The notes: a model not told the origin generated them from the letters alone. A DNA stretch of 64,000 nt from Pirellulales bacterium (GCA_035531595.1 DATKSN010000114.1:11186-75185), one strand, 5' to 3'; numbered from the stretch's first letter, positions 41,356 to 60,200 are shown. Made by a program: numbers and translations.

Positions 41356-41364
41356 TTCTTTTCA

Positions 41365-41555: not shown

Positions 41556-41719
41556 AAAAAGATGTGTGGAACAACGAGGGCGTCAGCCCCACGAAGCTCT
41601 GCCACCAGCCACCACCTTCTCGTGACAAAACGTCTCATTCTGGGCCGCGCACAGTCTAAAGCCCTGAAGGGGCGACAGCGACCGTAGTTCGGCCGATTTC
41701 GCGCGGTTACAAGGTACTC

Positions 41720-44858: not shown

Positions 44859-45107
44859 GCGCCCTGGGGGCGCAGTGGCGCCGACCGCGCCGTAGCCCGC
44901 GACAGCCGATAGCAACAGCCGGTCGGCACTATGTTCGCGCTCGCGAAAAATGCCGAGGCGGCCCCTTGACGGTCGCCATAAAACGGGCAAGATGATTTGC
45001 TGATCGGGCGGCCGAAAGTTGGTTGCAGTCAATCACTTGCGCCGGCAGTTTTGTCTCGCCCGAGCAACGCTGGATCGGCTCATTCCCGAGCCAATGGCGC
45101 GTACGCG

Positions 45108-45908
45108 ATGAGGCAACTGGTGCAGGCAGCGATTCTATTCCCCGAAACGCTGGGCTTCCGCGACGGCTCCGCCAGCGTTCATACCAGCCGCACGATGATG
45201 CTGGATGAGCTATCGCTCGTGATCGAAAAAGTTGGCCCGGCCGCAAGGGCCAACGACTACGTTGCGGCCATCGTTGAGGAAAATGCGTTGGGCAAGCCGA
45301 CCCAGAGCACCCGTCAGCGGACTGCCAAACGACTCAGGGAGCTTTACGCCTTGGACCCGCGCTGCACCCTGTTTCGTCGGCTACGCCATTTTTGGACGGG
45401 CGTGCCGGCTGGCCGCCCGATGCTGGCTTTCCTGGCGGCTGCTGCGCGTGATCCACTCCTGCGAGAAACAACCCCATTCATGCTCTCCCTTCGGGAAGGG
45501 GAAAGCGTCGACGCTGGTGAGATCTCCGAGCACCTGCGGCAAGCGTATCCTGCTCGGTTCGCCGCGACCACTCTTCACTCCACGGCACAGAACCTCGCGT
45601 CGACTTGGACCCAGGCGGGCTATCTGCGCGGTAAGGTCAAGAAGTGTCGGTCGCACCCTCATGTGCCCCCCGTCGTGGCGGCATTCGCCGTCCTTCTCGG
45701 CTATCTTTGTGGCTTGCGGGGGAAGCTGCTCTTGGACTCGACGTGGACGCGGCTGTTGGATCGGTCTCCCGTCGCCCTGTCGGACCTCATGATCGAAGCC
45801 TCGCGCCAGGGCTGGCTCAATTATAAGGCGGCCGGCAACGTCGTCGAGATCACGTTCCCTGGCCTGTTGAAGCCACCGGAAGAGAAGGCCGCCGATGAGC
45901 AGAATTGA
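45108..45908 (+). CDS. brxA: BREX protein BrxA (DUF1819-like)
   Basis: Sits immediately upstream of brxB and overlaps it. IVEENALGKPTQSTRQRTAKRLRELYALDP fits my recollection of the DUF1819 pattern. The start is uncertain (ATG 45108 chosen), and it is longer than a typical BrxA. Confidence 0.7.
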   Translation: MRQLVQAAILFPETLGFRDGSASVHTSRTMMLDELSLVIEKVGPAARANDYVAAIVEENALGKPTQSTRQRTAKRLRELYALDPRCTLFRRLRHFWTGVPAGRPMLAFLAAAARDPLLRETTPFMLSLREGESVDAGEISEHLRQAYPARFAATTLHSTAQNLASTWTQAGYLRGKVKKCRSHPHVPPVVAAFAVLLGYLCGLRGKLLLDSTWTRLLDRSPVALSDLMIEASRQGWLNYKAAGNVVEITFPGLLKPPEEKAADEQN

Positions 45909-46467
45909 TTTATTGCGCAAAAACTACCAACGGATTTGCCGCCTGCCGTGGGATCACAACACCGCCGGCCCGCAACGGGTTTGGCTGGCGGTTTACGACA
46001 AGGAAGACGAACGCAAGCTGCGATTGCGACTTGGCCTGTTCAGGGAAGCCACGGAACAGGCGGGCCACCACTGGCACGCCTTCGATTGCACCGACGCTTT
46101 TGCCGACTGGCTCGCCAATCCCCCCTATTCCGACTACGCCGAAAGTTACTTCGAGTCGCCGCCTCGGCTGGGAACCGCTCCGCTTGCCGCCTTCAAAAAG
46201 TCATTGGCTGCGGATCTGTCGAAAAGGCTTCAATCCGTCGAGGCGCCCGAAGATACCGTGGTTGCCGTCTATGGGGTGGCGTCCTTGTTCGGGTTCCTGC
46301 GGATTTCCGAGCTCCTGCCTTTGGTCGAGGACCACATTCGCGGACGGCTTCTGGTCTTCTTCCCCGGCGTTTATGAACAAGACAACTACCGCCTGCTCGA
46401 CGCGCGCGATGGCTGGAATTATCACGCGGTGCCGATCACGGCCGGCGAAGGGGAGCTTCACCGATGA
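45895..46467 (+). CDS. brxB: BREX protein BrxB (DUF1788)
   Basis: VWLAVYDKEDERKLRLRL...LFGFLRISELL...GRLLVFFPGVYEQDNYRLLDARDGWNYHAVPIT is the DUF1788 signature. It overlaps brxA by 14 nt and brxC by ATGA. Confidence 0.9.
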   Translation: MSRIDLLRKNYQRICRLPWDHNTAGPQRVWLAVYDKEDERKLRLRLGLFREATEQAGHHWHAFDCTDAFADWLANPPYSDYAESYFESPPRLGTAPLAAFKKSLAADLSKRLQSVEAPEDTVVAVYGVASLFGFLRISELLPLVEDHIRGRLLVFFPGVYEQDNYRLLDARDGWNYHAVPITAGEGELHR

Positions 46468-49400
46468 TGAACCGAGAGGTCTACGAGAAAGATCCCCGCA
46501 CCAATACTCTACTGAACCAGGGCGTGGTCAAGGTGACCTGCGGGTACTCCGAGCAGGAGTTGAAGACGCTTCGTTGGGAAATTGAGAACTTCGTTTGCCG
46601 AGACCAGTACGAGAACGGCGTGGACCGCATCCTGTCCACCTACTTGGCCAACCTCGATCAACCTGAGCAACCGGGTGTTTGGGTCAGTGGTTTTTACGGT
46701 TCCGGAAAAGGGCATCTGGTCAAGGTACTGCAACACCTTTGGATCGACTTCGAGTTCCCCGATGGAGCCAAGGCCCGCGGCCTCGCCAAGCTGCCGACGA
46801 ATACCCATGACTACTTCAAGGAGCTGACGACGGCGGCGAAGCGTCTTGGCGGCCTGCATGCCGCCGCCGGAACCCTGGGGTCCGGCGCGTGCGAGAGCGT
46901 CCGCCTCGATCTCTTGAGCATCATCTTTCAGTCGCTCTCGCTGCCCGGCGAGTTTCGCACCGCGAATTTCGTGCTGTGGCTTCGTGACGAGGGCTTGGAA
47001 GAGGCCGTGATGGCGGCCATCGCCAAATCCGGGCTGGACAAGGACGCAACCCTGGCGAACTTCTACGTTTCGGATCCCATTGCCAAGGCGATCTTGAAGG
47101 AGCGTTCCGATTTCGCCAACAAGCCCGGCGATGTCAAGCTGCTGCTGGAGAAGCAGTTCCCTGAAAAGATGGACGTTTCCATCGACGAGATGATCGCCAA
47201 GATCAAACAGGCCCTCGGTAGTCATCACGCTCCGCGTGATGGAAACTCCGGCAAGAAAGGCAAACTCCCCTGCACGCTGATCGTGCTGGACGAGGTTCAG
47301 CAGTACATCGGCGACAGCGTGGACCGCTCCAAGGCGGTGCAGGATGTACAGGAGCAGTGCTGTGCCCGGCTGGGCGCCAACGTGATGTTCGTCGCCACGG
47401 GTCAGAACGCATTGTCCGGCACGCCGCTGTTGCAACGCCTCCAAGGGCGGTTCCCAATCCCGATCGAATTGCACGACACCGACGCGGACCAGGTCACCCG
47501 CGAGCTCGTCCTCAAGAAAAAGCCGTCCACGGAGCCGACAATCAAGAAACTCGTCGAAGACCATAGCGGCGAGATCGAGCGGCAACTGGCTGGCACGACG
47601 ATTGCCTTCAACTCCCGCGACAGGCAGTTGCTCGTAAAGGATTATCCGATCTTGCCCGTGCGGCGGCGATTGTGGGAGCGGGTATTGCGCGCCGTCGACA
47701 AGGCAGGGACAGGCGCCCAGCTTCGCACCCAACTTTGGATTGTCTACGACGCCGTACAAAAGACCGCCGATCTTCCGCTCGGCAACGTGGTCAGCGGGGC
47801 TTTCTTGTTCGAGCACATCAAGACCAAGGTGCTGCAATCGGGTGTCCTGCTGCAAGAGATCTCGGAAACCATTGCTCGCCAGAAGCAGGAAGACGAGGGC
47901 GAGCTTCGCTACCAACTGTGCGCATTGATCTTCCTGATCGGGCAGTTGCCGCACAACAAAGAACCGCTTGACGCGGGCATTCGTGCCAACGCGGAGACGC
48001 TCGCCGACCTGCTCGTCACCGATCTGACCACCAGCAGTGCCGGACTTCGCAAGACGGTCCCCGAACTCTTGGAGAAGTTGGTCGCGTCCGGGGCCGTCAT
48101 GCAGGTCGACGACGAATACCGGATGCAGACCCGCGAAGGCAGCGAGTGGAACCAGGCGTTTCAAGAGGCCCGCAACAAGCTGATCGCCGATGCCGGCAAA
48201 TTGGCCGGCGAGCGGTCGCAACTGCTCAAGACGCAGTGCGGCGAGATCCTCAAGAAGTCGAAACTGCTGCATGGCACCAGCAAGGAAGCCCGCAAATTCG
48301 AGCTTCACTTCGGGGCGGATGCTCCGGACACAAGCGGTTCCACTGTGCCCGTCTGGATTCGCGATGGTTGGGAGGTCCAGGAGAAGACGGTCGTCAGCGA
48401 TGCCCGTGCCGCGGGCGACTCCGCCGCCGTGGTCTATGGGTTCGTCAAGCCGACGAAGTCCGAGGAGCTCAAACACGCGATCGCCAGTCACTACGCCGCG
48501 ACCGCCACGCTCAATGCCAAGGGTACGCCCTCGACGCCGGAAGGGATCGAGGCGCGAAAGGCGATGGAAACCCGCCTGGAGCAGGCCGAAGGAACCCGCA
48601 ATGGTCTGATCGAAGAGATCCTCAACGAAACCGCCATTTACACCGCCGGGGGCGAGGTGGTCAACGGAATCCTGCTCGAAGGCAAAGTCCAGGACGCCGC
48701 AAGAGCGTGCCTCGACAGGCTCTTCCCGCGGTTTCAACTGGGCGACTCACCCGACTGGCACAAGGTTATCGAACGTGCCAAAAAGGGGGACGGCGACGCC
48801 CTGGAGGCCATGGGTCACAAAGGCGACCCCGAGAACCACGCCGTCTGCAAGGCGGTCATCGACTACGTCGGCAGCGGCAAAAAGGGTACCGATGTTCGCA
48901 AGCAATTCGCCGGGCCGCCCTGCGGCTGGCCGCAGGACGCCATCGACGCCGCCCTGATCGTCTTGGCCAACGGCGGCGTTTTGCAAGCGCGCAGCGGCAA
49001 CGAGCCCATCGCCAAGGGCAAACTCGACCAGAAGAATATGACCGGTGCCGAGTTTCGTACCGAATCGGTGAAGCTCACCACCCAAGAATTTGTTGCCATC
49101 AGAGGCGTCTACAAGAAAGTTGGCTTGAACAGTTCATCGGGCCAGGAGTCATTGCACGCGCCGGAGTTCCTCAGCCGCGTCCATCGCCTCGCCGAGGATG
49201 CCGGGGGTGACGCTCCGCTGCCCAAACGCCCCGAGACTCGCCATTTGCTCGACATGGCCAACCGTGTCGGCAACGACCAACTCAAGGCCATCTACGACAA
49301 TAAGGATCGCTTGACGCAGGAGATCGCCGACTGGCAGAAGCGCAAGGATCTGATCGCGAAGCGCGAGCCGCACTGGAAGGAGCTAACAGCGCTGTTGGTC

Positions 49401-49934
49401 CACGCCGCTGAGTTGCCCGTGGCCGGGGAGGTCCAAGCGGAAGTCAAAGCCATCGAAAAGCACCATCGCCTGTTGGACGATCCCGACCCCGTGCCGGGGC
49501 TCGTGAACAAGCTAACGGAGGCGTTGCGCGGCGCGATCAACGAAACTCATTCCGCCTGCGCCGCCGCGCGTGAAAAGGGGCTGGAGGGACTCGAAGGCAA
49601 CGACCCCTGGCAAAAACTCACGCCCGAGCAGCGATACGAAATCCTCTCGAAGAACGGCGTCCGGGAAATGCCGGCGATCGCGGTTGGCACAACCGACGAG
49701 GTTCTGACCACGCTGGCGAAAACGCGGATCAGCGAACTGGCCGCGATTCGCGATGCCTTGCCGACCCGCTTCAGCAACGCCCTGGCCACGGCGGCGAAGC
49801 TGCTCGAGCCGAAGGCCCAGCACGTCGATCTCCCGAGCGGAACGATCAAGAACGATGACGACTTGAAGAGTTGGTTGACATCGGCGGAGGATAAGATTCG
49901 TGGAAAACTCAAGGACGGGCCGGTGATCGTGTAG
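46464..49934 (+). CDS. brxC: BREX system P-loop protein BrxC
   Basis: 1156 aa. P-loop GFYGSGKGHLVKVL, Walker B-like LIVLDEVQQY. Size and position (after brxB, before pglX) fit BrxC. Confidence 0.9.
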   Translation: MMNREVYEKDPRTNTLLNQGVVKVTCGYSEQELKTLRWEIENFVCRDQYENGVDRILSTYLANLDQPEQPGVWVSGFYGSGKGHLVKVLQHLWIDFEFPDGAKARGLAKLPTNTHDYFKELTTAAKRLGGLHAAAGTLGSGACESVRLDLLSIIFQSLSLPGEFRTANFVLWLRDEGLEEAVMAAIAKSGLDKDATLANFYVSDPIAKAILKERSDFANKPGDVKLLLEKQFPEKMDVSIDEMIAKIKQALGSHHAPRDGNSGKKGKLPCTLIVLDEVQQYIGDSVDRSKAVQDVQEQCCARLGANVMFVATGQNALSGTPLLQRLQGRFPIPIELHDTDADQVTRELVLKKKPSTEPTIKKLVEDHSGEIERQLAGTTIAFNSRDRQLLVKDYPILPVRRRLWERVLRAVDKAGTGAQLRTQLWIVYDAVQKTADLPLGNVVSGAFLFEHIKTKVLQSGVLLQEISETIARQKQEDEGELRYQLCALIFLIGQLPHNKEPLDAGIRANAETLADLLVTDLTTSSAGLRKTVPELLEKLVASGAVMQVDDEYRMQTREGSEWNQAFQEARNKLIADAGKLAGERSQLLKTQCGEILKKSKLLHGTSKEARKFELHFGADAPDTSGSTVPVWIRDGWEVQEKTVVSDARAAGDSAAVVYGFVKPTKSEELKHAIASHYAATATLNAKGTPSTPEGIEARKAMETRLEQAEGTRNGLIEEILNETAIYTAGGEVVNGILLEGKVQDAARACLDRLFPRFQLGDSPDWHKVIERAKKGDGDALEAMGHKGDPENHAVCKAVIDYVGSGKKGTDVRKQFAGPPCGWPQDAIDAALIVLANGGVLQARSGNEPIAKGKLDQKNMTGAEFRTESVKLTTQEFVAIRGVYKKVGLNSSSGQESLHAPEFLSRVHRLAEDAGGDAPLPKRPETRHLLDMANRVGNDQLKAIYDNKDRLTQEIADWQKRKDLIAKREPHWKELTALLVHAAELPVAGEVQAEVKAIEKHHRLLDDPDPVPGLVNKLTEALRGAINETHSACAAAREKGLEGLEGNDPWQKLTPEQRYEILSKNGVREMPAIAVGTTDEVLTTLAKTRISELAAIRDALPTRFSNALATAAKLLEPKAQHVDLPSGTIKNDDDLKSWLTSAEDKIRGKLKDGPVIV
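47218..47241. repeat. Single REP unit inside brxC, in-frame
   Basis: gtagtcatcacgctccgcgtgatg, translated as ...GSHHAPRDG... Confidence 0.85.
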
Positions 49935-49939
49935 CCATC

Positions 49940-50843
49940 GTAGACCTCACGCTCCGCGTGAGGAAACATCACGCGGAGCGTGATGACTACCGTAGATTTT
50001 ACGCTTGAGCGTGACGAAGCGCCGCGGCGAGATTGGTGACTTCGTCGAGACGACGACGTTACAATGAATCGAACTACCATGAACACACACGCCTCCTCAG
50101 TCCCCGCGATGCCGGTCCACCTGTTCGACGCCGACGCGGAATTATCGATCGTCGAGCGCCGCTTGCCTCATTGGTCGCAGGCCGGCGCGATTTGCTTCAT
50201 CACATGGCGCACGAACGACTCCATGCCCAAGCAAGTCCTCGACGAATGGTACTCCGATCGAAACCATTGGCTTCGATCGCATGGAATCAATCCCGCCGAC
50301 TCGAATTGGCGAGCACGGCTCGCGGAAATCGACCGTCGATCCGCGCGCGACTTTCTCGATACGTTCTGGAACCGCTGGCACGACGCTCTTGACGCGGGAC
50401 ACGGAAAGTGCGTGCTGCGCCGGCCGGACCTCTCGGAAATCGTCGCCAAGAGCCTCCGCCACTTCGACGGCGAGCGGTACGTCATGCTCGACTACGTGGT
50501 GATGCCCAACCATGTCCACCTGCGGGCTTCCTTTCCCGACGAAGGAGCCATGGTGGCACAGTGCGAGTCGTGGAAGCACTTCATGGCCGTGCAAATCAAT
50601 CGACGGCTGGACCGAAAAAAGCGGTTTTGGGAGCAGGATGCGTTCGATCACCTTCTCCGCAGTGAAGAACAATTCCACTACCTTCGCCGGTACATCGCCG
50701 AGAACCCGGCCAAGGCACGTCTTGGCCCGGGTGAGTCCAGGCACTACTCTAAACCACTTTGAAGCTGCGGCCACCGTAGACCTCACGCCACCGTAGACCT
50801 CACGCTCCGCGTGAGGAAACATCACGCGGAGCGTGATGACTAC
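49940..50843 (+). mobile_element. RAYT gene flanked on both sides by REP doublets (REPIN-like), inserted between brxC and pglX
   Basis: Left doublet 49940-49990: gtagacctcacgctccgcgtgagg-aaa-catcacgcggagcgtgatgactac. An identical doublet lies at 50793-50843, preceded by a partial unit at 50776-50790. Confidence 0.8.
50064..50762 (+). CDS. REP-associated tyrosine transposase (RAYT; IS200/IS605 Y1 HUH family)
   Basis: LPHWSQAGAICFITWRTNDSMP, HUH motif VVMPNHVHL, and catalytic-Tyr region FHYLRRYIAENP. It is flanked by REP doublets. Confidence 0.85.
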   Translation: MNRTTMNTHASSVPAMPVHLFDADAELSIVERRLPHWSQAGAICFITWRTNDSMPKQVLDEWYSDRNHWLRSHGINPADSNWRARLAEIDRRSARDFLDTFWNRWHDALDAGHGKCVLRRPDLSEIVAKSLRHFDGERYVMLDYVVMPNHVHLRASFPDEGAMVAQCESWKHFMAVQINRRLDRKKRFWEQDAFDHLLRSEEQFHYLRRYIAENPAKARLGPGESRHYSKPL

Positions 50844-50871
50844 GATCGTGCTCAGCCCGACGCCAGAAACC

Positions 50872-53800
50872 ATGCCCGCACTCGCAACCGACCTTCGCAA
50901 GCAACTCGAAAACGTCTGCATCCAGGCGCGCGACCTGGCCGAGGCCGCGGCGCGCTCCGCCCTGCAAAAACGGGCGGTCGATGTCCCGGAGCCGTTCACG
51001 CACTTCAGCGCCGCCGACAAGGAATTGCGGAACCGCCTCCGCGCTCGCGGGCGCCAAATGGGTGACGTTCGCCACGCCAACAAGACGCAAGCCATCGACC
51101 AGCTCACCCAGGAGCTCGCCTACGAATACTGGCACCGCATGCTCTTTGCCCGCTTCCTGGCCGAGAACAACCTGCTGATAAACACCGAAGGGGTCGCCGT
51201 CAGCCTCGAAGAGTGCGAGGAACTGGCCAAGACCGTAGACGTCACGCTCCGCGTGACGGGCGACGGGACGCATCACGCGGAGCGTGATGTCTACGGTGGC
51301 GCCCCCAACGGCTTCGTCCTGGCCGCGCGCTACGCCAGCCGGATGCTGCCCCAGATTTTTCGCACCGACGACGTGCTGCTCGAAATCGAATTTCCCGCTG
51401 AGCAACGGCTGACTCTTGAAAGACTCCTGGCCAGCTTGCCCAAGGAGACGTTCCTGGCCGACGACAGCCTCGGCTGGGTGTACCAGTTCTGGCAGAGCAA
51501 GCGTAAGGACCAGGTGAACGCGGCCGGCGCGAAGATCGACGCCACGACGCTTTCGGCCGTCACCCAACTCTTCACTGAGCACTACATGGTGGAGTTCCTG
51601 CTTCACAACACGATCGGGGCCTGGTGGGTGGCCAAGGAAGGAGTTGGGCCACGGATCAAACACGGATCAAACACGGATGGGAAGAGAGAATACGCCAATG
51701 GCATTGATCCGAGTTCCATTCGTGCTCCGTCCGTCGCTTTGTCCGATTTCGAATACCTGCGTTGGCGCGACGACGGCACGCCCGCGGCGGGCACGTTCGA
51801 CGGTTGGCCGCGCCGCGCCGCGGAGCTGAAAGTGCTCGACCCCTGCTGCGGCTCGGGGCACTTCCTCGTCGCGGCGTTCAACCTGCTCGTGCCGCTGCGG
51901 ATGGTTGAAATGACTCAGGCGAGCGGGGGGCGTCAGCCCCCTGTTTCCGAAGTGGTCGACGCGGTCCTCCGCGACAACCTGTTCGGGCTGGAGCTCGATC
52001 CCCGCTGCACGCAGATTGCCGCCTTCGCCTTGGCCTTGGCGGCGTGGCGGTATCCCGACCGTAGCCATCACGCTCCGCGTGATGAGGACCGTAGCCATCA
52101 CGCTCCGCGTGATGAAACCGTCACGCGGAGCGTGACGTCTACGGTAGAGCCGCTCGGCTACCGCGAACTGCCGCCCTTGAACATCGCCTGCGTCGGCATT
52201 GGGCCACAGGCCGGCGAGGACGAATGGCTCAAGCTCGCCCAGCAATCGGGCCGGCCGATGAACGCCCTCTCGCGCGAGCCGATCCTCGACGGGCTGCGGA
52301 ACTTGCACGCGCTGTTTTCCAACGCGCCGACCTTGGGTTCGCTCATCGACCCGAATCAAATGTCGGCGGACCTGATCACCGCCGACTATCGAACCTTGCA
52401 GCCCTACCTGGCCGCCGCTTTGGCGGCCGACGACCGTAGTCATGCGGACCGTAGTCATCACGCTCCGCGTGATGGGACCGTCACGCGGAGCGTGACGTCT
52501 ACGATGGACGACGACGCGCGCCAGCGAGCCGTGGCCGCCCAAGGCATGGCCAAAGCCGCCGAGTTGCTCGCCGGCGAATACACGCTGGTCGTCACCAACG
52601 TGCCGTACCTCGGCCGCGGGAAGCAGGATGAGACGCTCAAAAGCTACTTGGAGAAGCACTATGCCGAAGGCAAGGCCGATTTGGCCACCGCCTTCGTGCT
52701 GCGGTGTCTGGAGTTCTGTGCCGGCGGCGGCACGGCGGCGCTGGTGACGCCGCAGAACTGGTTGTTCTTGACAAGCTATACCAGGCTACGGCAACGTCTG
52801 TTGGAAGACAGGACGTGGAATGCGGTCGCTCGATTGGGCGAACGCGCATTTGAGAGCGACGCGGCTGCCGGAGCGTTTGTGGCGATGCCGATGTTGTCGG
52901 CGACAGGGCCCGGCGACGACAACATGGTGGTCGGACTTGACGCGTCGGGGGAGAGGGACAGCTCCGAAAAGGCAAAGGCCTTGTGCCAAAAGCGTCTCAT
53001 GCTCGTCAGCCAAAAGTCACAGTTTGCGAATCCCGATGCCGCGATCAGGATGGAGGTTGTTTCCGGCAAGCTTCTTTCTGAGCATGCTTCATCGACGCAG
53101 GGCTTGAAAACGGGCGATGACGAAAGGTGGCGCAGATTCTTTTGGGAGATTTGGCGAGATGGCGCTCGGTGGCGGCTGCTTCAGAGCACAGTCGAAACTA
53201 CAATCGCTTTCGGTGGAAAGGAAAGTGTAATCGACTGGGCCGGGCGAGGGGAACAAATGGCCCGGCTTCAAGGCATGGCCGCTTGGGGGAGTGCGGGTGT
53301 AGCCGTCAAGCTCATGCGCTCACTACCTGTAACGTTGTACACAGGCGAGGTGTTTGACAGCAACGTATCCCCGGTCGTTCCATATCAACGAGATTTATTA
53401 CCCGCGATCTGGTGTTTCTGTGAGTCGGGTGATTTGGCCAAGGGAATTCGTAAGGTGAATACCAAACTAAACATCGCTGAGGGAAGCCTTGTGAAAATCC
53501 CCTTCGACCTCGCCCACTGGCAGCAGGTGGCCGCCGAGAAGTACCCGAACGGCTTGCCGGAGCCTGAGAGCGACGATCCGACGCAGTGGCTGTTTCACGG
53601 CCGGCCGGAGCAATCGACCGGGCCCTTGCAAGTGGCCGTGGCGCGGATGCTGGGCTACCGTTGGCCGGCGGAGCTCGACGCGTCGATGCGTCTCAGCCGG
53701 CGGGCGCGGGAATTGGTCGAGCGGTGCGACGAGTTGGTCCCTTTCGCCGACGCCAACGGCCTGGTGCCCATCTCCTCGGTGCGCGGCGAGCCGCCGGCGG

Positions 53801-54525
53801 CCGAGCGGTTGCTGGAGTTGCTGCGCGCCACCGTAGGCATCTCGCTCCGCGAGATGAATCCTCACGCGGAGCGTGAGGTCTACGATGGGCGTGATGACTA
53901 CGGTGTCTTGCTCGAGCGGGCGCTTGGCGACGCGGGCTGCAAGCCCGGCACCTCGCTCGACGACTGGCTCCGCAACCAGTTCTTCGAGCAACACTGCAAG
54001 CTGTTCCATAATCGCCCCTTCATCTGGCACATCTGGGACGGCCGCAAGGACGGCTTCTCCTGCCTGGTCAACTACCACAAGCTCAACCACAAGACGCTGG
54101 AAAACCTGACCTACTCGTACCTGGGCGACTGGATCGCGGCCCAGGCCGCGGAGGCCAAGGCCGATAGAACCGGTGCCGGACTGCGACTCGCCGCCGCCCA
54201 GGCGTTGCAAGCCAAGCTCAAGCTGATTTTGGCCGGCGAGCCGCCTTACGACATTTTCGTTCGCTGGAAGCCGCTTTCGGAACAGGCCATCGGCTGGCAC
54301 CCGGAGCTGAACGACGGTGTCCGAATGAATATCCGTCCTTTCATCGAGGCCGACATCCTGCGGAAAAAACCGAACATCAAGTGGACCAAGGACCGCGGCA
54401 AGGAACCCGGGCGGGATAAAGCGGAATACCCCTGGTTCTGGAAGGGCGAGGCGTTCGTGGGGGATCGGGTGAACGACGTACACTTCACCAACGCCGAGAA
54501 ACAGGCGGCGAGGAGCAAGAAGTAA
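50872..54525 (+). CDS. pglX: BREX-1 adenine-specific DNA methyltransferase PglX
   Basis: SAM motif I LDPCCGSGHFLVAAF and motif IV variant VVTNVPYLGRGK, about 1200 aa, positioned after brxC. Start set at the MPALATDL ATG (50872), because the ORF-track start lies inside the REP doublet. Confidence 0.9.
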   Translation: MPALATDLRKQLENVCIQARDLAEAAARSALQKRAVDVPEPFTHFSAADKELRNRLRARGRQMGDVRHANKTQAIDQLTQELAYEYWHRMLFARFLAENNLLINTEGVAVSLEECEELAKTVDVTLRVTGDGTHHAERDVYGGAPNGFVLAARYASRMLPQIFRTDDVLLEIEFPAEQRLTLERLLASLPKETFLADDSLGWVYQFWQSKRKDQVNAAGAKIDATTLSAVTQLFTEHYMVEFLLHNTIGAWWVAKEGVGPRIKHGSNTDGKREYANGIDPSSIRAPSVALSDFEYLRWRDDGTPAAGTFDGWPRRAAELKVLDPCCGSGHFLVAAFNLLVPLRMVEMTQASGGRQPPVSEVVDAVLRDNLFGLELDPRCTQIAAFALALAAWRYPDRSHHAPRDEDRSHHAPRDETVTRSVTSTVEPLGYRELPPLNIACVGIGPQAGEDEWLKLAQQSGRPMNALSREPILDGLRNLHALFSNAPTLGSLIDPNQMSADLITADYRTLQPYLAAALAADDRSHADRSHHAPRDGTVTRSVTSTMDDDARQRAVAAQGMAKAAELLAGEYTLVVTNVPYLGRGKQDETLKSYLEKHYAEGKADLATAFVLRCLEFCAGGGTAALVTPQNWLFLTSYTRLRQRLLEDRTWNAVARLGERAFESDAAAGAFVAMPMLSATGPGDDNMVVGLDASGERDSSEKAKALCQKRLMLVSQKSQFANPDAAIRMEVVSGKLLSEHASSTQGLKTGDDERWRRFFWEIWRDGARWRLLQSTVETTIAFGGKESVIDWAGRGEQMARLQGMAAWGSAGVAVKLMRSLPVTLYTGEVFDSNVSPVVPYQRDLLPAIWCFCESGDLAKGIRKVNTKLNIAEGSLVKIPFDLAHWQQVAAEKYPNGLPEPESDDPTQWLFHGRPEQSTGPLQVAVARMLGYRWPAELDASMRLSRRARELVERCDELVPFADANGLVPISSVRGEPPAAERLLELLRATVGISLREMNPHAEREVYDGRDDYGVLLERALGDAGCKPGTSLDDWLRNQFFEQHCKLFHNRPFIWHIWDGRKDGFSCLVNYHKLNHKTLENLTYSYLGDWIAAQAAEAKADRTGAGLRLAAAQALQAKLKLILAGEPPYDIFVRWKPLSEQAIGWHPELNDGVRMNIRPFIEADILRKKPNIKWTKDRGKEPGRDKAEYPWFWKGEAFVGDRVNDVHFTNAEKQAARSKK
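51235..51294. repeat. REP doublet inside pglX, in-frame (60 nt)
   Basis: gtagacgtcacgctccgcgtgacg-N12-catcacgcggagcgtgatgtctac, translated VDVTLRVTGDGTHHAERDVY. Confidence 0.85.
51649..51736. repeat. CACGGAT-rich 11-mer repeat element inside pglX, in-frame (boundaries approximate)
   Basis: ccacggatcaaacacggatcaaacacggatgggaagagagaatacgccaatgg...ccattcgtgctccgtccgtcg. Same family as the elements at 54527, 56395, 59703 and 60151. Translated PRIKHGSNTDGKREYANGIDPSSIRAPSV. Confidence 0.7.
52061..52142. repeat. REP triplet (two direct units plus one inverted) inside pglX, in-frame
   Basis: gtagccatcacgctccgcgtgatg twice (52061-52084 and 52091-52114), then cgtcacgcggagcgtgacgtctac (52119-52142). 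Translated DRSHHAPRDEDRSHHAPRDETVTRSVTST. Confidence 0.85.
52436..52502. repeat. REP doublet plus a partial unit inside pglX, in-frame
   Basis: gtagtcatgcg (partial), gtagtcatcacgctccgcgtgatg (52451-52474), and cgtcacgcggagcgtgacgtctac (52479-52502). Translated DRSHADRSHHAPRDGTVTRSVTST. Confidence 0.85.
53833..53901. repeat. REP doublet (variant stem) plus a partial unit inside pglX, in-frame
   Basis: gtaggcatctcgctccgcgagatg-aat-cctcacgcggagcgtgaggtctac, then gcgtgatgactac. Translated VGISLREMNPHAEREVYDGRDDY. Confidence 0.85.
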
Positions 54526-54526
54526 G

Positions 54527-54580
54527 GCACGGCTGAAACACGGGCGGAACACGAATGGAAGCGGTAGAATGGAATGGCGG
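54527..54580. repeat. Junction repeat (GAAACACGGGCGGAACACGrATGGAAGnGGTAnAATGG) with a possible -10 box
   Basis: ggcacggctgaaacacgggcggaacacgaatggaagcggtagaatggaatgg. TAGAAT at 54565-54570 lies 45 nt upstream of the ATPase ATG. A near-copy lies at 56405-56447, and a degenerate copy at about 56741-56780 lies upstream of hicB. Confidence 0.5.
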
Positions 54581-54615
54581 CAGGAGAACCCTCAAGGTCC
54601 AGAAGGAAAAAACGG

Positions 54616-55713
54616 ATGATCACGTCGATAACCATCGAAAACTTCAAGAACATTCGGCGGCAGCAGATTGATCTTGAGCCGCTCACGGTCTTCGTCGGCG
54701 CGAACGGAAGTGGCAAGACGAGCGTGCTTGAAGCGATCAATGTGGCTGTTAGAACAGCAACTGGCTCGCCCGAGAAAGTGCCTCCCTACCGACCTAACTG
54801 CGACTGGCTTTATACACGAGGTGGTCACGGCGATTTGAAAATTACCTTTGCGACAGAGCATGGGCAGTTTTGGGTGACGGCAAGTCCACCCATCGCCTTT
54901 CCGCCGCCAATCGAGCTTTTGGGGAAAAGCCAATGGGCCTTTGCCGTGCGTTGTTCGACCGACCTGCGCTTGGAGGACGCAGTCGCACTAGCGAAATCAA
55001 CGGTTTTCTTGGGCCTGTCCGCGTCAAAATTGGCGAAACCGTCGTACTCTGCTCTCAATCCGCCGACGTTGGCGTACAATGGGGGCGGTCTCGCGTCGGT
55101 TCTTGCTCACATGGCTCTGAACGCCCCGGACGTGTTTGACGAATTGGTCTCGCGGTTGCGGGAGTTGGTTCCTCAGTTGAAACGGATTCGCTTCAAGAAG
55201 GCCGCCGTCAAACTCCCGGAGAAGGAGTTGGTGCGTTTTGGCGAGGAAACGATGCGACGGCGATTTTCACGAACCTACCAAGGCGAGGAGCTTCTGTTTG
55301 ATTTCGAAAACGGGTCCAATATCCTGGCGCAAACGGCAAGCGAAGGGACGCTCGTGCTACTTGGGTTGTTGACAGTGGTTCTTCGACCAGAGCGACCCGA
55401 TGTCCTGCTCCTGGACGACCTGGAACACGGCCTTCACCCGTTGGCGCAACAATCGTTGCTCGAAATGCTGCGAAAGCTGATGCAGACGTTTCCTCGATTG
55501 CAGATCGTGGCGACCACCCATTCGCCGTACCTTCTCAACTACCTCTCCCCACAGCAAGTGCGAATCATGGCCATCGGGCCGGATGGCTATACGCGTTGTG
55601 GGCGGCTGACCGATCATCCTAAGTTTTCGACGTGGAAGGACGAGATGGCTCCGGGTGAGATGTGGAGCCTGTTTGGGGAGAAATGGCTCGCGGAAAAGGG
55701 GGCCGCGGAATGA
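54616..55713 (+). CDS. AAA_21/AAA_15-type (ABC/OLD-like) ATPase nested in the BREX locus
   Basis: MITSITIENFKNI, Walker A GANGSGKTS, Walker B LLLDDLEHGLHP, and TTHSPYLL. Start set at 54616 (AAGGA upstream). Confidence 0.85.
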   Translation: MITSITIENFKNIRRQQIDLEPLTVFVGANGSGKTSVLEAINVAVRTATGSPEKVPPYRPNCDWLYTRGGHGDLKITFATEHGQFWVTASPPIAFPPPIELLGKSQWAFAVRCSTDLRLEDAVALAKSTVFLGLSASKLAKPSYSALNPPTLAYNGGGLASVLAHMALNAPDVFDELVSRLRELVPQLKRIRFKKAAVKLPEKELVRFGEETMRRRFSRTYQGEELLFDFENGSNILAQTASEGTLVLLGLLTVVLRPERPDVLLLDDLEHGLHPLAQQSLLEMLRKLMQTFPRLQIVATTHSPYLLNYLSPQQVRIMAIGPDGYTRCGRLTDHPKFSTWKDEMAPGEMWSLFGEKWLAEKGAAE

Positions 55714-56370
55714 GCCTGCAAATCGCCGTCGTCCATGAGGCTGCGGCCGACTTTCAGACGGCCACGAAGCTTGCCGACCGAGCAATGTGCGCGGCCATTA
55801 GCTGGCTCGACGAAGAGCTGCTGGGGACATTTCGCGAACGAGTCGGCGCTTCCGGACGCGGCAGCCGCGCGTCGTGCTATCACCTTCCTCCGGAACGAGT
55901 TCCCCGAACTGGGGGCAATCGTACTGGTCCGAGATCGGGACGATGAGCCGGAGCGACGAGGCGGCCTGGAACAAGCACGCCGCCACAACAACACCCACTT
56001 CGTGATCGTAGTGGGATTTGCCGTTGTGGAACGTGAGAGTTGGGTGATCTGCGGGTATGAGTCTCTCAACGAAGGTGAGTCGGCTTGCCTAGAAGCGGAG
56101 CGAAAGCGGCTCGGCTTCGACCCGCGATTCCGGAGCCACGAACTAACGGCATGTAAGAACGACCAGGCCAAACGCAGCCCGAAGCGGGTTCTTGCCGTCT
56201 TGACCGACGGAGACCACAATCGCGAGCGCCGTTGCTGGCGAGAGACCCCGCTCGAAGTGCTTCGCGACCGCGGAAAGCACAATGGACTTGCGGATTATCT
56301 TGCGGAAGTTGAACAGCGGCTCGCGCCGTTGATCTCGGGTCACGAAATGAGACCGGTGAAACCCTGTTGA
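55710..56370 (+). pseudogene. Toprim/DUF4276-like partner of the ATPase, interrupted by a frameshift
   Basis: The ATG overlaps the ATPase stop (ATGA). Frame A encodes MSLQIAVVHEAAADF...EELLGTFRER and then degenerates to a stop at 55946. Frame +1 encodes ...AITFLRNEFPELGAIVLVRDRDDEP...VVGFAVVERESWVICG... to 56370. The E / DxD / E spacing resembles Toprim. The frame switch lies somewhere in about 55800-55870. Confidence 0.55.
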
Positions 56371-56394
56371 CGAGGGGAACACAAAAAGCCACCG

Positions 56395-56455
56395 ATGAGC
56401 CACCGATGAAACACGGGCGGAACACGGATGGAAGAGGTACAATGGCGTAGTCGAG
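56395..56455. repeat. Junction repeat copy (CACCGATGA 11-mers, GAAACACGGGCGGAACACGGATGGAAGAGGTACAATGG)
   Basis: gccaccgatgagccaccgatgaaacacgggcggaacacggatggaagaggtacaatggcg, with TACAAT at 56438-56443. Confidence 0.6.
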
Positions 56456-56809
56456 TATGGAGCGGCGGACAAGAAACCAAGGCCCTTGAAAAGCAGGATC
56501 AACATGAAGTCGTCGAGCACTGGGCCGTCGATTGGAGCGCGCACGGGAACTGCCACGACCCGCCGCATCGGGCGGCCTGCGGTTTGGGCCTCGGCGTCGC
56601 TTGGTATCGTGACGTGCTGCGGGCCAAGCTCGTTTCGCTGCGTCTGCCGCTTCGCCTGCTGCTGGAGTACAAGGAAAAGCTGACGGCGCAAATCGAGAAA
56701 TTAGAACGACAATTCCATGAGCAACAGTGATTGAGTTCCGGTGGCACGGGCAAAGCAACGGCCGAAAGGGTAGAATGGGATCTGGTGTCACGCCAAACAG
56801 GAGTTTCTC

Positions 56810-57031
56810 ATGAGCACGCGATACACGGTCAGTGACGGCAAGCTCGTCCTGAACCTTGAACCGGCGGAGGAAGGAGGGTACGTCGTGACTTCGCCTCTCG
56901 ACCCCGAGCTGATTACCGAGGGCGAGACCATCGAAGAGGCGTTTGCCAACGCTCGCGACGCCACCGCGGCCCTTAAGCAATCGAGGGTCAAGCTACTGCG
57001 CCGGGTGTCGGCACCGACCTCTCGAGGATAA
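56810..57031 (+). CDS. hicB: HicB-like (UPF0150) antitoxin
   Basis: YTVSDGKLVLNLEPAEEGGYVVTSPLDPELITEGETIEEAFANARDA is HicB-like. AGGAG lies upstream. Confidence 0.7.
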   Translation: MSTRYTVSDGKLVLNLEPAEEGGYVVTSPLDPELITEGETIEEAFANARDATAALKQSRVKLLRRVSAPTSRG

Positions 57032-57042
57032 GATCGCCCCCA

Positions 57043-57231
57043 ATGAATCGCCGGGACGCCACCTGCGCGAGCATGGATGCGTGTTGCACCATCATGGCGC
57101 AAAACACGACGTTTGGCTCAATCCCGCAAACCTTGCCCAGGCGCCGGTCCCGCGGCATTCCAAGATCAAACGCGGCACAGCTCGGGGGGGTGTGCGGAAT
57201 ATTGGGCATTCCGCGCCCACCGGGGCCTTAG
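57043..57231 (+). pseudogene. hicA: HicA toxin gene with two frame disruptions
   Basis: MNRRD is read in the ATG frame. RHLREHGCVLHHHGAKHDVWLNPANLAQAPVPRHSKIKRGTAR is read in the -1 frame. GVCGILGIPRPPGP is read back in the ATG frame. The second switch coincides with a G7 run at 57184-57190. Confidence 0.65.
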
Positions 57232-57252
57232 TCGTTAGTCTTCCTTCAATTC

Positions 57253-59688
57253 ATGGCAACTTTAACGCAACCGACTGTGTTCGACGCTCTGCTCGCCTCG
57301 CTGGCGAAGGCCGCGGACCACAACCGTGATGACGCGGTTGGGCCCGCCGCGGTCCTCTGGCCGGATGAGAAGCGGGAGTGGGAACGGCTCCTGCCCCGGA
57401 TCCGGGTATTGCTGCCGCACTTTCTCGTCTTGGGGCCATATGACAAACCCAACCGCACCGGCCCGGCGATCTGGCTTCGCTACGTCCTGGCGGCCAAGGT
57501 TCCCGACATCACCTGGCCGACAGGCACGGTGCCGATCATCTACCTGCCCGGCGTCAGCCGAGCCACACTGCGCGCGACCGAAGAATGCCCCAACGAGCTG
57601 AAGCCTCTGGCTGAACTCCAATACCGCGGTGCGTTCTGGTCGCAGGTCAATGCCAAGGACTGGACGATCGCCGCGTTCCTGCAAACGAACCACGGCGGCC
57701 TGCAACTCAAGATCGCCAAGGACCAGGCCACGGCGACCGCGATCCGCCGTGCCATCGACAAGCTGCTCGATGTGCCAGTTGCCGACTTGCAAGCCCAGTG
57801 CGCCAATGCCGAGCTTAACAGCCAATTCTTCAACCTGCTCATCAGCGACGATCCTGTGGACGACCTCTTGACCTGGCTTGCCGACCCACAAGCCACCCGC
57901 GAGCGATGGGACACTGACCGCTGGGAAGCCATGTGCGGCGACTCGGTGAAAAACTACGGCTTCGACCCAGCGCGCGACGGGCCGTTGGTCGGCGCCGAGA
58001 AACTCGGCCTGCAAGAGAAGAACGTTTGGAAGACCGCCTGGAAGCGATTCGCGACCGCACCCAGCCGTTACGCCGGCCTCATCGAACAGCTTCGCCGCGC
58101 CAAGCCGCAACCGAAAGGCGCGACCAAAGGGCAGCCGCTTTTCCAAAATGCCGAGGAATGCTGGCCCCAGGACAACGAGGCCGCGGAAGCCGAGCTTCGC
58201 CGGTCGTTGCTGCACGTCGCTTCGGCATCGCCGTCGGAGGCGCGCCAAACGCTCGCGGAGCTGGAAAACCATCACAAACAACGGCGCGAGTGGGTGTGGG
58301 CCAGGCTGCACCTGACACCGTTGGCCAACGCGCTACAACACCTCGCCCAACTGTCACAAGTCACCGAAACGCCGTTGACCGGCGCGACCCTCGCCGACAT
58401 GGTGAATGCCTACACTGGCGAGTTGAATCCTCACGCCACCGTAGACATCTCGCTCCGCGAGATGAATCCTCACGCGGAGCGTGAGGTCTACGATGGCTGG
58501 AAGGCCGATGCCGCGGTGCTCGACGCCCTTGCCGCGGTCTCGCACTCGCAAGATCGCGACGTGATATGCGGCGCCATTTCGCAGGTCTATACACCTTGGC
58601 TTCGCGACGCCGCTGAACTGTTCCAAGAGCGCGTCAAGCACGAGCCGTTACCCGGTCGCGAGTTGTCCCGCTTGTCGGACGTTGCCAGTGGAACCTGCGT
58701 CCTGTTCGCCGACGGTTTGCGGTACGATATTGGGCGGAAACTCAAGGCGGCTCTTGAAGTGAAGTTGGGTTCCGTGCAATTGCGGCACCAATTCGTCGCC
58801 CTGCCCTCCGTGACGCCGACCGCCAAGCCCGCCGTCTCGCCCGTCGCCGATAAGATCAAGGGATCCACGGCGGGCGAAGAATTCCGTCCCTGCGTGGCAG
58901 TGGGCGAAAAAGAACTGACGACTGACCGTTTCCGCAAGCTGCTGGAAGACGACGGTTATCAAATCCTCGGCCCTGCCGACAACGGCGAACCCAAGGGCCG
59001 CGCCTGGACCGAGTTTGGCAACCTCGACAAGACCGGACACCATGAAGGCATCGGACTCGCCAGGCGCATCGGGGAATTGCTCACGACCCTGACACAGCGG
59101 GTTGAGTCGCTCCTGGCCGCCGGTTGGCGAGAAGTCCGCATCGTGACCGACCACGGCTGGTTGCTCGTGCCCAAGTGTTTACCGAAGAGCGATCTGCCGA
59201 AATACCTCACGGCAACCCGCTGGGGGCGCTGTGCCGTCGTCAAGCCGTCGGCCACGGTCGAGTTTCCGTGCTTTTCGTGGTTTTGGGCGGCAGACGTGCG
59301 TATCGCTTGCCCCAGCGGCATTGACAGCTTCATCGCCGGCAAGGAGTACAGCCACGGCGGGCTCAGTTTGCAGGAGTGCGTTGTGCCGCAGCTTACAATC
59401 CAAGCCGCAAGCCAGCCCTTGGTTTCGGCGAGAATCGAGTCGTACAAGTGGGCCGGGCTCCGTTGCCGCGTCAAGGTTGAAGGGGGCTTCGACAACTGCA
59501 CCGTGGACCTGCGAGACAAGGCGGCCGACCCGGCATCCTCCCTGACAGGGGCGAAGTCGGTGGGCAAAGACGGCAGCCTGGCCCTCGTCGTCGAGTACGA
59601 TGCGCGGGATGGCACCGCGGCGATCCTCGTCTTGCTCGACGCGGACGGCAACGTCCTGGAAAAAACGCCCGTGACGGTAGGAGGGTAA
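57253..59688 (+). CDS. pglZ: BREX-1 alkaline-phosphatase-fold protein PglZ
   Basis: 811 aa. CVLFADGLRYDIGRKL and ...IVTDHGWLL are PglZ-domain motifs. Position fits, between pglX and brxL. Confidence 0.9.
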   Translation: MATLTQPTVFDALLASLAKAADHNRDDAVGPAAVLWPDEKREWERLLPRIRVLLPHFLVLGPYDKPNRTGPAIWLRYVLAAKVPDITWPTGTVPIIYLPGVSRATLRATEECPNELKPLAELQYRGAFWSQVNAKDWTIAAFLQTNHGGLQLKIAKDQATATAIRRAIDKLLDVPVADLQAQCANAELNSQFFNLLISDDPVDDLLTWLADPQATRERWDTDRWEAMCGDSVKNYGFDPARDGPLVGAEKLGLQEKNVWKTAWKRFATAPSRYAGLIEQLRRAKPQPKGATKGQPLFQNAEECWPQDNEAAEAELRRSLLHVASASPSEARQTLAELENHHKQRREWVWARLHLTPLANALQHLAQLSQVTETPLTGATLADMVNAYTGELNPHATVDISLREMNPHAEREVYDGWKADAAVLDALAAVSHSQDRDVICGAISQVYTPWLRDAAELFQERVKHEPLPGRELSRLSDVASGTCVLFADGLRYDIGRKLKAALEVKLGSVQLRHQFVALPSVTPTAKPAVSPVADKIKGSTAGEEFRPCVAVGEKELTTDRFRKLLEDDGYQILGPADNGEPKGRAWTEFGNLDKTGHHEGIGLARRIGELLTTLTQRVESLLAAGWREVRIVTDHGWLLVPKCLPKSDLPKYLTATRWGRCAVVKPSATVEFPCFSWFWAADVRIACPSGIDSFIAGKEYSHGGLSLQECVVPQLTIQAASQPLVSARIESYKWAGLRCRVKVEGGFDNCTVDLRDKAADPASSLTGAKSVGKDGSLALVVEYDARDGTAAILVLLDADGNVLEKTPVTVGG
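58426..58491. repeat. REP doublet (variant stem) plus a partial unit inside pglZ, in-frame
   Basis: aatcctcacgcca (partial), gtagacatctcgctccgcgagatg (58441-58464), aat, and cctcacgcggagcgtgaggtctac (58468-58491). Translated NPHATVDISLREMNPHAEREVYDG. Confidence 0.85.
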
Positions 59689-59702
59689 GGTTAAGAAATG
59701 AG

Positions 59703-60182
59703 CCACGGATGAAACACGGATGAAACACGGATAAGAGCACGCATAGGAGCACTGGTTGGATCATGGAATTGCAGCACAAGGAGATCACGGAGCAGATCAT
59801 CGGGGCCGCATTTGAGGTTCATCGAACTCTCGGCTACGGATTTCTGGAAAGGGTGTACCAGCGCGCCTTGCAGGTCGAACTTCGCAATCGCGGCCTCAAG
59901 GCCGAAGTTGCGGCCGGGGTCTGAGTCGTCTACAAGACCGCGGAAGTCGGATTTTACAAACCCGACTTGTTCGTGAACGATTCCGTCATCGTCGAACTCA
60001 AGGTTGCGAAGAGCTACAATTCGGAAGACGAGGCGCAGTTGCTCAATGAATTGAAGTCCACCGGCGTGAAGGTGGGCCTGCTCATCAACTTCGGCAGGAC
60101 CAAAGTCGAGTTCAAACGAATGGTGTTCTGACCGAGGCTTCTATATTCCGTTATCCGTGTTTCATCCGTGTTTCATCCGTGG
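59703..60182. mobile_element. Cassette bounded by perfect 32-bp inverted repeats and carrying a GxxExxY gene
   Basis: ccacggatgaaacacggatgaaacacggataa (59703-59734) is the exact reverse complement of 60151-60182. Mobility is inferred only. Confidence 0.45.
59763..60131 (+). pseudogene. GxxExxY family (PDDEXK_3) protein gene with an in-frame TGA
   Basis: My own translation is MELQHKEITEQIIGAAFEVHRTLGYGFLERVYQRALQVELRNRGLKAEVAAGV*VVYKTAEVGFYKPDLFVNDSVIVELKVAKS...GLLINFGRTKVEFKRMVF. It contains the G-x-x-E-x-x-Y (GFLERVY) and D...ELK motifs. The stop is at 59922-59924. Confidence 0.7.
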
Positions 60183-60200
60183 CCAACGAAGTTTTATCCT

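Follow-up and report, generated by a model that had tools for sequence, protein, structure and literature searches.

In-frame GTAG-tagged REP elements clustered around a RAYT gene in a BREX-1 defence operon of a Pirellulales bacterium

How a family of small DNA hairpins came to lie inside the protein-coding genes of a phage-defence operon, and whether the proteins that carry the resulting peptides can still work, are the questions raised by a stretch of 64,000 nucleotides from a Pirellulales bacterium (GCA_035531595.1, DATKSN010000114.1:11186-75185; hereafter the window, with positions counted from its first letter). Between 45 and 62.3 kb, the plus strand of the window carries a type 1 BREX (bacteriophage exclusion) operon, with brxA-brxB-brxC-pglX-pglZ-brxL in this order and with strong hidden Markov model scores for each. 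A first-pass annotation had noticed that repetitive extragenic palindromic (REP) units, singly or as REP doublets forming hairpins (REPINs), occur in-frame inside brxC, pglX and pglZ and also flank a gene for a putative REP-associated tyrosine transposase (RAYT). Our analysis points to local seeding by the resident RAYT gene as the probable origin of these copies, with selection keeping the in-frame insertions that fell in loops and with the encoded peptides carried as passengers.

A scan with a 25-nt consensus (CGTAGnCnTCACGCTCCGCGTGAnG, at most 2 mismatches by Hamming distance) revealed 16 units of the GTAG-tagged palindrome CGTAGnCnTCACGC-TCC-GCGTGAnG, which together give the consensus CGTAGnC-nTCACGC-TCC-GCGTGAn-G. 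The units form eight clusters, all between 47.2 and 58.5 kb and hence confined to 11.3 kb of the 64-kb window, and the core TCACGCNNNGCGTGA is present in 14 exact copies, all at 47225-58484, where shuffled sequences gave an expectation of 0.5 and a maximum of 3. Six clusters are intragenic (47217-47241 in brxC; 51234-51295, 52060-52143, 52450-52503 and 53832-53884 in pglX; 58440-58492 in pglZ), and two flank the RAYT gene. Of the latter, the one that follows the brxC stop codon, ahead of the RAYT (49939-50016), is an inverted doublet (REPIN 49939-49991) with a degenerate third unit, and the one that follows the RAYT stop codon, ahead of the pglX ATG at 50872 (50775-50844), is a partial unit with an inverted doublet (50792-50844). 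The brxC cluster is a single unit, pglX holds a triplet as its second cluster and doublets as the other three, and pglZ a doublet, so that seven of the eight clusters are multi-unit, built as head-to-head (+ then -) doublets or as the triplet. These places, and the mixture of singles, inverted doublets and triplets, had been recognised correctly in the first-pass annotation, which overlooked extra partial units at 49993-50016, 50775-50791, 52433-52449, 53878-53902 and 58426-58439.

Folded as single strands, the multi-unit clusters reached -22 to -36 kcal/mol (z -7 to -10), with the cluster downstream of the RAYT (50775-50844) forming a long hairpin of -24.8 kcal/mol (z -9.8), and the single unit in brxC reached -8.4 kcal/mol (z -3.8). 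The two doublets flanking the RAYT are near-identical over 57 nt and constitute one of three REPIN subtypes, each of which occurs twice; the other two link the second with the third pglX cluster, and the fourth pglX cluster with that of pglZ, the last pair having a compensatory TCTCGC/GCGAGA stem in common. Such twofold occurrence would be expected if copying acted on the doublet as a whole. Paired, compensatory changes in the 8-bp stem were also seen across 325 units from 138 sources, a result that is indicative only because these units had been preselected for at least 7 of 8 pairs. The remaining ~53 kb of the window contained no unit at up to 2 mismatches, and at up to 6 mismatches yielded three 6-mismatch matches only, which is the level of chance (0-4 in controls). 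The absence of outside copies that had been reported by eye was thereby borne out, except that the hairpin at 17730 (CCCACGC-TTC-GCGTGGG), previously regarded as related, has no GTAG and does not match the consensus, and was rejected as a family member. Codon-level alignments at the brxC and pglZ sites displayed no target-site duplication, the criterion applied to MITEs (miniature transposable elements with inverted repeats).

Judged from alignments with 60-120 orthologs, the six intragenic clusters are clean indels of 11-33 amino acids (aa), in agreement with what the earlier reading had anticipated for BrxC, PglX and PglZ. Within brxC (46464-49934, plus strand, as are pglX, pglZ and the inserts of all three genes; a P-loop ATPase of 1156 aa; NCBIfam BREX_BrxC, 727 bits; PADLOC, 1399 bits), the insert of 33 nt at 47217-47249 contains the single unit and encodes GSHHAPRDGNS (aa 252-262), a segment that 60 of 60 orthologs lack. 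The pglX gene (50872-54525; PADLOC PglX, 1450 bits) encodes a BREX-1 adenine methyltransferase of 1217 aa, counted from ATG 50872, whose sequence relatives include the solved structures 8c45 and 9ewz, and its four REP segments are absent from most of 120 orthologs. Its first insert (51231-51299) is a doublet (51234-51258 and 51271-51295) encoding TVDVTLRVTGDGTHHAERDVYG, at a site where 4 other types of repeat peptide were found in 7 of the 120 orthologs. The second (52057-52146), which lies between motifs I and IV of the methyltransferase, is a triplet (+,+,-) encoding DRSHHAPRDEDRSHHAPRDETVTRSVTSTV; a close relative (L122) has it as a doublet, 100% identical over the units, of which the window's triplet is a 30-nt in-frame duplication. 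The third (52430-52506), a partial unit and a doublet encoding DRSHADRSHHAPRDGTVTRSVTSTM, is confined to the window among the 120 orthologs and is present in L122 too, and the fourth (53829-53905), a doublet and a partial unit encoding TVGISLREMNPHAEREVYDGRDDYG, has the TCTCGC/GCGAGA stem in its first unit and takes the place of a conserved 12-aa segment, YGxKWSNSLLHD, at a hot spot where about 10 orthologs carry other repeat families. In pglZ (57253-59688; BREX-1 phosphatase type B, 811 aa; NCBIfam BREX_PglZ_1_B, 844 bits), the insert comprises 72 nt (58423-58494), a partial unit with a doublet encoding LNPHATVDISLREMNPHAEREVYD (aa 391-414), and 58 of 60 aligned proteins lack it, the exceptions being an identical copy of the protein (P0121) and P0128, in which this site carries a REPIN of the same subtype.

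Every intragenic copy sits in the open frame of its gene, although a doublet leaves just one of the three sense frames open, as exemplified by pglX insert 1, where the gene uses the single frame that is open; the chance of all six copies being open is ~4e-6. Translation reproduced the insert peptides quoted in the first-pass annotation and its observation that the reading frames stay open, along with the antisense read-through, one or two of the three antisense frames being open through the units. An origin of the peptides as ancestral segments was rejected on the gaps in the ortholog alignments, and the possibility that the genes are pseudogenes on the open frame of all inserts. The catalytic motifs are preserved: motif I (DPCCGSGHF) and motif IV (TNVP) of PglX, and Walker A (GFxGSGK) and Walker B (LDEV) of BrxC, are invariant columns in alignments A1 and A3, respectively, and the two mid-gene pglX clusters lie, as had been stated, between DPCCGSGHF and NVPYLG. 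In AlphaFold2 (AF2) models, every pglX and brxC insert coincides with coil and with a predicted local distance difference test (pLDDT) score below 50, at residues 126-140, 399-428 and 527-545 of PglX for inserts 1-3, with a dip at 1002-1005 for insert 4, and at residues 255-264 of BrxC, which form a coil between a helix (240-254) and the Walker-B strand (270-276). The models accordingly place these inserts in predicted loops between structured elements, which is what the structural check proposed earlier had looked for.

The longest pglX open reading frame (ORF) begins at GTG 50833, inside the REPIN downstream of the RAYT, and ATG 50872 aligns with Met1 of all PglX orthologs, making it, on alignment evidence, the most likely start. 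With this start, the doublet downstream of the RAYT lies 5' of pglX and not inside it, and gene callers may add 13 spurious residues to PglX because GTG 50833 opens the longest ORF.

The gene that these clusters surround (50064-50762, plus strand) is intact, co-oriented with the operon and located in the slot between brxC and pglX. It encodes an HUH/Y1 transposase of 232 aa with the HUH motif VMPNHVHL and the tyrosine motif YLRRYIAENP, in which H150, H152 and Y210 are invariant (alignment A6, 18 sequences). Used as a single sequence, the protein gave no meaningful match in the PDB; as a profile, its best match was E. coli TnpA-REP (4er8, E 1.8e-7), ahead of the ISDra2 and IS608-type (IS200/IS605) TnpA proteins, and NCBIfam REP_Tyr_transpos was the best family for 18 of 18 of its relatives. 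These comparisons assign the ORF to the RAYT clade rather than to IS200/IS605 TnpA, upholding the identity given to it earlier. Relatives at least 48% identical are flanked by the same REP family on about 20 metagenome contigs and 3 genome contigs, and the layout of a RAYT flanked by REPs, which we refer to as a REPtron, was also present in L005, L111, L120 and L121. Most RAYT relatives with long flanks lie away from BREX, including examples at 54-67% identity (L123, L124, L130, L140, L142).

The GTAG repeat itself is widespread, occurring in at least 120 genome stretches of Pirellulaceae, Gemmataceae, Planctomycetaceae, Kuenenia, Verrucomicrobia and Lentisphaerae. In those stretches (L001-L120), which showed no match to the window and no BREX gene, a codon-usage test placed 11 of 155 clusters (7%) inside coding ORFs and about 93% in intergenic positions; the test recovered all six intragenic cases in the window and is approximate because its codon model was trained on the window. 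Set against this background, six intragenic clusters out of eight represent a strong excess (binomial P 3e-6), and the concentration in the BREX locus that had been suspected is real. The 11 intragenic cases elsewhere lie in unrelated genes, among them a RibD-like deaminase, a UvrD-like helicase, an oxidoreductase, PSCyt/DUF1553 proteins, an RND pump and a radical-SAM protein.

The association recurs in other BREX operons. No frequencies can be read from the loci compared, because their choice favoured insert-rich PglX proteins. The locus L121 has the order brxA-brxB-brxC-RAYT-pglX-pglZ-brxL, with PglX 53% and the RAYT 67% identical to those of the window, and contains 17 units of the same repeat, restricted to 9.1-16.4 kb of its 23.7 kb; they lie at the RAYT flanks, at several sites in pglX, at one site in pglZ and in the pglX/pglZ and pglZ/brxL gaps, and the insert sites within pglX and pglZ differ from those in the window. 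A different RAYT occupies the brxC-pglX slot in L202, where the 242-aa protein is 31% identical to the window RAYT (BLASTP, E 4e-18) and has no Pfam match, its assignment resting on BLASTP and NCBIfam REP_Tyr_transpos; here another hairpin, GGCAGACC-GGAA-GGTCTGCC, flanks the RAYT and occurs four times in pglX, at three insert sites of the ortholog alignment, and once in pglZ. In L206, a RAYT (Y1_Tnp gene) is located in the same slot and a second RAYT-like ORF lies inside pglX, and in L168 and L169, a RAYT that is 36% identical stands directly upstream of pglX. Altogether, a RAYT was found in this operon slot in at least four diverged BREX lineages with at least three REP families, and one locus that is not BREX (L124) has an in-frame REP unit in a 1306-aa gene 0.7 kb from its RAYT. 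BREX loci showing no RAYT of the window family in the sequence covered had no cluster of the window repeat (10 loci) or one (L205, L207), the slot being cut off by the contig end in L207 and L168, and loci with ORF6N, bAvd or ParE in the slot likewise had 0 or 1.

The close relative L122, whose RAYT is 93% and whose DNA is 87-93% identical, retains a BREX remnant only (9688-11115), in which brxC is reduced to its final 136 nt and pglX to two fragments, alongside a RAYT that keeps its doublets. Its breakpoints lie at or beside REP clusters, reflecting either REP-associated deletion or misassembly at the repeats. As an independent assembly, it displays the second and third pglX clusters in the same coding context as in the window, and between the two, 1 of 112 positions differs within the REP units and spacers, as against 23 of 215 in the flanking codons (Fisher P 4e-4).

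In the mechanism that we propose, the GTAG-tagged 8-bp hairpin with its TCC loop is a non-autonomous REP/REPIN of a system whose RAYT gene sits in the brxC-pglX slot. The RAYT, as an HUH/Y1 single-strand DNA transposase, would recognise the hairpins, and either the RAYT or host processes acting on hairpins would repeatedly copy REPs within a few kilobases of the RAYT gene. Most landing sites would be coding because the operon has almost no intergenic room, and the surviving copies would be those whose length is divisible by three, whose frame is open and whose position is a permissive loop, under purifying selection on a BREX system that still functions. The peptides of 11-33 aa would then be passengers, most likely disordered surface loops without a function of their own. 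We infer that the window RAYT is the mobilising enzyme of these REPs, that their insertion is preferentially local and that BrxC, PglX and PglZ still work with their inserts.

These facts could also be read without any role for the RAYT, if REPs landed throughout the genome and were merely kept by permissive loops in PglX and, to a lesser extent, PglZ. The occurrence of at least six repeat-peptide families at the same few PglX sites across 120 orthologs fits such general tolerance, as do the insert-rich PglX proteins of L203 and L211, whose slot holds no RAYT, the window REP in the pglZ gene of L205 with no RAYT nearby and the nearly insert-free state of the more conserved BrxC. Against it stand the lack of any copy, intergenic or otherwise, over the window's remaining 53 kb and over the 13 kb that flank BREX in L121, the enrichment of intergenic copies within the L121 locus (pglX/pglZ, pglZ/brxL) and the agreement, seen in three loci with two different family pairs, between the repeat inside pglX and the local RAYT's own family; with 0 or 1 clusters in BREX loci that show no RAYT of the window family, we regard this account as unlikely. 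At the other extreme, the REPtron might be adaptive, acting as a phase-variation switch through excision and insertion or REP-REP deletion, modulating mRNA or varying loops against anti-BREX proteins. This notion draws on the same-slot RAYTs in at least four diverged BREX lineages and three REP families, on the 1/112 versus 23/215 differences between window and L122, on the pglZ insert, which at one and the same site is present in some close orthologs and absent from others, as precise excision could produce, on the L122 deletions that end at or beside REP clusters and on the strength of the hairpins (-22 to -36 kcal/mol). Yet most RAYT relatives at 54-67% identity lie away from BREX, the slot is more often filled by unrelated cargo (ORF6N, bAvd, ParE), insert positions vary between loci and gene conversion among copies can also conserve REPs, which leaves adaptation rather improbable in our estimation. 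We hold it just as doubtful that the RAYT and the REPs are a co-inherited planctomycete BREX module, compatible though this is with the same-slot RAYTs, the REP conservation and the polymorphic pglZ insert. In such a module, a transposase co-transcribed with brxC and pglX would act on the hairpins within pglX and pglZ to switch or remodel defence, by precise excision and re-insertion or by deletions bounded by REPs like those of L122, or the RAYT would serve as an HUH nuclease accessory; if true, it would mean transposase-driven phase variation or diversification, which is not described for BREX.

Decay of the BREX operon under relaxed selection, with the inserts as early pseudogenisation, would be in keeping with the reduced remnant in L122 (RAYT 93% identical; only the brxC end, the RAYT and two pglX fragments kept), with the fragmented or shortened brxC of L210 and L212 and with the internal stop codon of a GxxExxY-family gene in the window's locus. 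Nevertheless, all six core BREX ORFs are intact, free of frameshifts and stop codons, all six inserts keep a single open frame and the ortholog-invariant columns, including Walker A/B and methyltransferase motifs I/IV, are retained, rendering this explanation very improbable. An assembly artefact, in which a short-read assembler had stitched REP copies into coding sequence, deserves consideration for a metagenome-derived sequence, as repeats of 60-90 nt can mislead assemblers and the L122 junctions fall at REPs. It is scarcely credible here: an identical PglX is recorded on 3 contigs (JGI, ENA), PglZ is 100% identical over 99% of its length to P0121 from an NCBI metagenome-assembled genome of a Pirellulales bacterium, an independent assembly, 87-93% identical, shows the second and third pglX clusters in unchanged coding context, and an artefact would not preserve the frame every time. 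The same records speak against the concern about assembly raised in the first-pass annotation.

Several observations weigh against local seeding by the RAYT. RAYT-mediated REP mobility is itself deduced in the literature rather than reconstituted, and the local excess is measured against 53 kb of flank in the window and 13 kb in L121. The gene brxC is as near the RAYT as pglX, yet has 1, 0 and 0 inserts in three loci; BrxC measures 1142-1152 aa in all but two shorter proteins of the 120 matches listed, and its alignment is 78% identical compared with 54-56% for PglX. Distance alone is insufficient to explain this, and tolerance must contribute; a directional bias in REP insertion is possible. 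The same hot spots are occupied by peptides from other repeat families in PglX proteins without a local RAYT (L203, L211), and L205 has the window REP in pglZ with no local RAYT. The single RAYT sequence falls below the family cut-offs (REP_Tyr_transpos, 55 versus 80 bits; Pfam Y1_Tnp, 20.4 versus 23), and the predicted loop placement derives from the pglX and brxC models.

Beyond the GTAG family, pglX contains two further in-frame repeats. At 51647-51745 (plus strand), a repeat of the AACACGGAT type encodes PRIKHGSNTDGKREYANGIDPSSIRAPSVA, common to many orthologs at the same site and missing from others, with pLDDT below 50 at residues 263-273 and 282-286; the same type is intergenic within the operon at 54525, 56398, 59701 and 60151. 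A small palindrome, GGGGGGCGTCAGCCCCC (51915-51945, plus strand), adds ASGGRQPPV, amounting to 7 aa extra relative to 21 of 21 orthologs in alignment A1, and the same peptide occurs elsewhere in P0006. In L206 (6769-11211, P0098), a pglX ORF of 1480 aa encloses an entire RAYT-like sequence in-frame (HVHLIF ... YVRQNPVRKG), on whose flanks lie palindromes of its own (CACAGCCGCCCCCGGCTGTG, a third hairpin family) and a tandem array.

The rest of the operon comprises brxA (44997-45908; PADLOC BrxA PDLC02450, E 1.2e-90; start codon uncertain), brxB (45895-46467; PADLOC BrxB, E 4.8e-66) and the Lon-like protease gene brxL (60168-62246; PADLOC BrxL, 961 bits), all on the plus strand, and its GC content is 61-62%, versus 63-66% elsewhere in the window. 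Between pglX and pglZ lies an accessory pair (54574-56370, plus strand) of an AAA_21/AriA-like ATPase (54574-55713) and a 211-aa partner (55735-56370), which is context outside the REP system and is bracketed by 48-nt direct repeats (54525-54572 and 56398-56445, 88% identical) of the AACACGGAT family, an arrangement that suggests cassette insertion. The slot also holds small ORFs (56428-57240), which look HicB/HicA-like by eye and had no NCBIfam match. In planctomycete BREX-1 loci, this slot often has an AAA_21 ATPase pair, PIN or other genes, and the brxC-pglX slot of L203, L204, L205 and L208-L212 contains ORF6N in 5 loci, bAvd/23S-rRNA-IVP in 1 and a ParE toxin in 2. In the pglZ-brxL gap (59702-60183), perfect 33-nt inverted repeats (GCCACGGATGAAACACGGATGAAACACGGATAA) bracket the GxxExxY-family gene (TIGR04256, 133 bits), which is interrupted by an in-frame TGA at 59922-59924, giving a MITE-like cassette. 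Outside the operon, the window has at least three other palindromic families, all intergenic by the codon test (7550-7642, 25508-25548 and 2338-2376; 16843-16881 and 33556-33594; 41360-41560), of which two, GGAACGCCACGGAGGGCGTTCC among them, also match L122. It further has 18-nt tandem arrays with a 6-aa periodicity at 8118-8207, 15443-15616 and 36082-36207, two of them in coding ORFs by codon score. Rfam and tRNA scans of the window gave no matches.

GTAG-tagged REPs, including families of the Planctomycetes-Verrucomicrobia-Chlamydiae (PVC) superphylum, were defined by Di Nocera et al. (2013, BMC Genomics 14:522, PMC3733652), who described RAYT genes flanked by GTAG repeats and intragenic REPs, more than half of them dimers, of 20-30 aa, most numerous in Opitutus terrae (PVC) and Rickettsia conorii; their list includes one N-6 DNA methylase (Oter_3011). 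In-frame REP invasion is less exotic than the first-pass annotation had held, because it was catalogued in that study, and other loci and families behave alike; what remains unusual is the concentration of copies with a RAYT in BREX. The copies of the window resemble those REPs in being GTAG hairpins, in occurring in-frame as singles and head-to-head dimers of ~7-30 aa and in sometimes occupying a gene twice. The REPs of PMC3733652 are scattered genome-wide with a bias toward DNA-repair genes, whereas the window has six sites in one defence operon that houses its RAYT. The repeat peptides HAPRD and HAER of the window had no match in the supplementary table of intragenic peptides of that paper, a comparison that did not extend to its consensus figure of 24 GTAG families.

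The REPIN-RAYT systems of Pseudomonas (Bertels and Rainey 2011, PMC3116915) offer a parallel in the replicating inverted doublet, the single flanked RAYT and the compensatory hairpin changes. In the literature, later papers included, Pseudomonas RAYTs are described as vertically inherited and single-copy, and their REPINs as extragenic and dispersed in hundreds of copies. Unlike these, the copies of the window cluster around the RAYT and are mostly intragenic, and the RAYT is part of a mobile-looking defence operon. Rickettsia palindromic elements (RPEs), as summarised in PMC3733652, are in-frame palindromes in protein genes that yield tolerated peptides, the proteins being reported as expressed. 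The window element has in common with them only the behaviour of in-frame palindromic insertion and is likened to them by this behaviour alone. RPE-1 is longer than the window element, its host has the reduced genome of an obligate intracellular bacterium and it is not known to be linked to a local RAYT.

With respect to BREX-1 loci with accessory genes, the core order and the cargo in the brxC-pglX and pglX-pglZ slots are familiar, whereas the first slot of the window holds a transposase and repeats and not a defence effector. PARIS, for instance, lies within a BREX locus of Salmonella. A 2026 survey of BREX diversity (PMC12839542) makes no use of the terms transposase, IS200, RAYT or HUH, and a limited literature search found no earlier report of a RAYT inside BREX. 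What appears to be new is the repeat family, the density at which it has invaded a defence operon and the recurrence of a RAYT within BREX, the in-frame kind of REP being already known.

For the biology of REPs and RAYTs, clustered intragenic copies in independent loci with different RAYT/REP pairs constitute natural-history evidence for local (cis) RAYT action, for which the locus in the window is a compact test system. RAYTs appear to have been captured repeatedly by the brxC-pglX junction, acting as a cargo slot. At the level of the proteins, the inserts mark putative loops in which PglX, PglZ and BrxC tolerate 11-33 extra residues. Two of these positions lie between motifs I and IV of the methyltransferase and another precedes Walker B by 8 residues, a map of use in engineering and in interpreting the solved PglX structures. 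More broadly, repeat-encoded peptides inflate and diversify protein families of Planctomycetota and can mislead gene callers, as the GTG at 50833 and the antisense ORFs illustrate.

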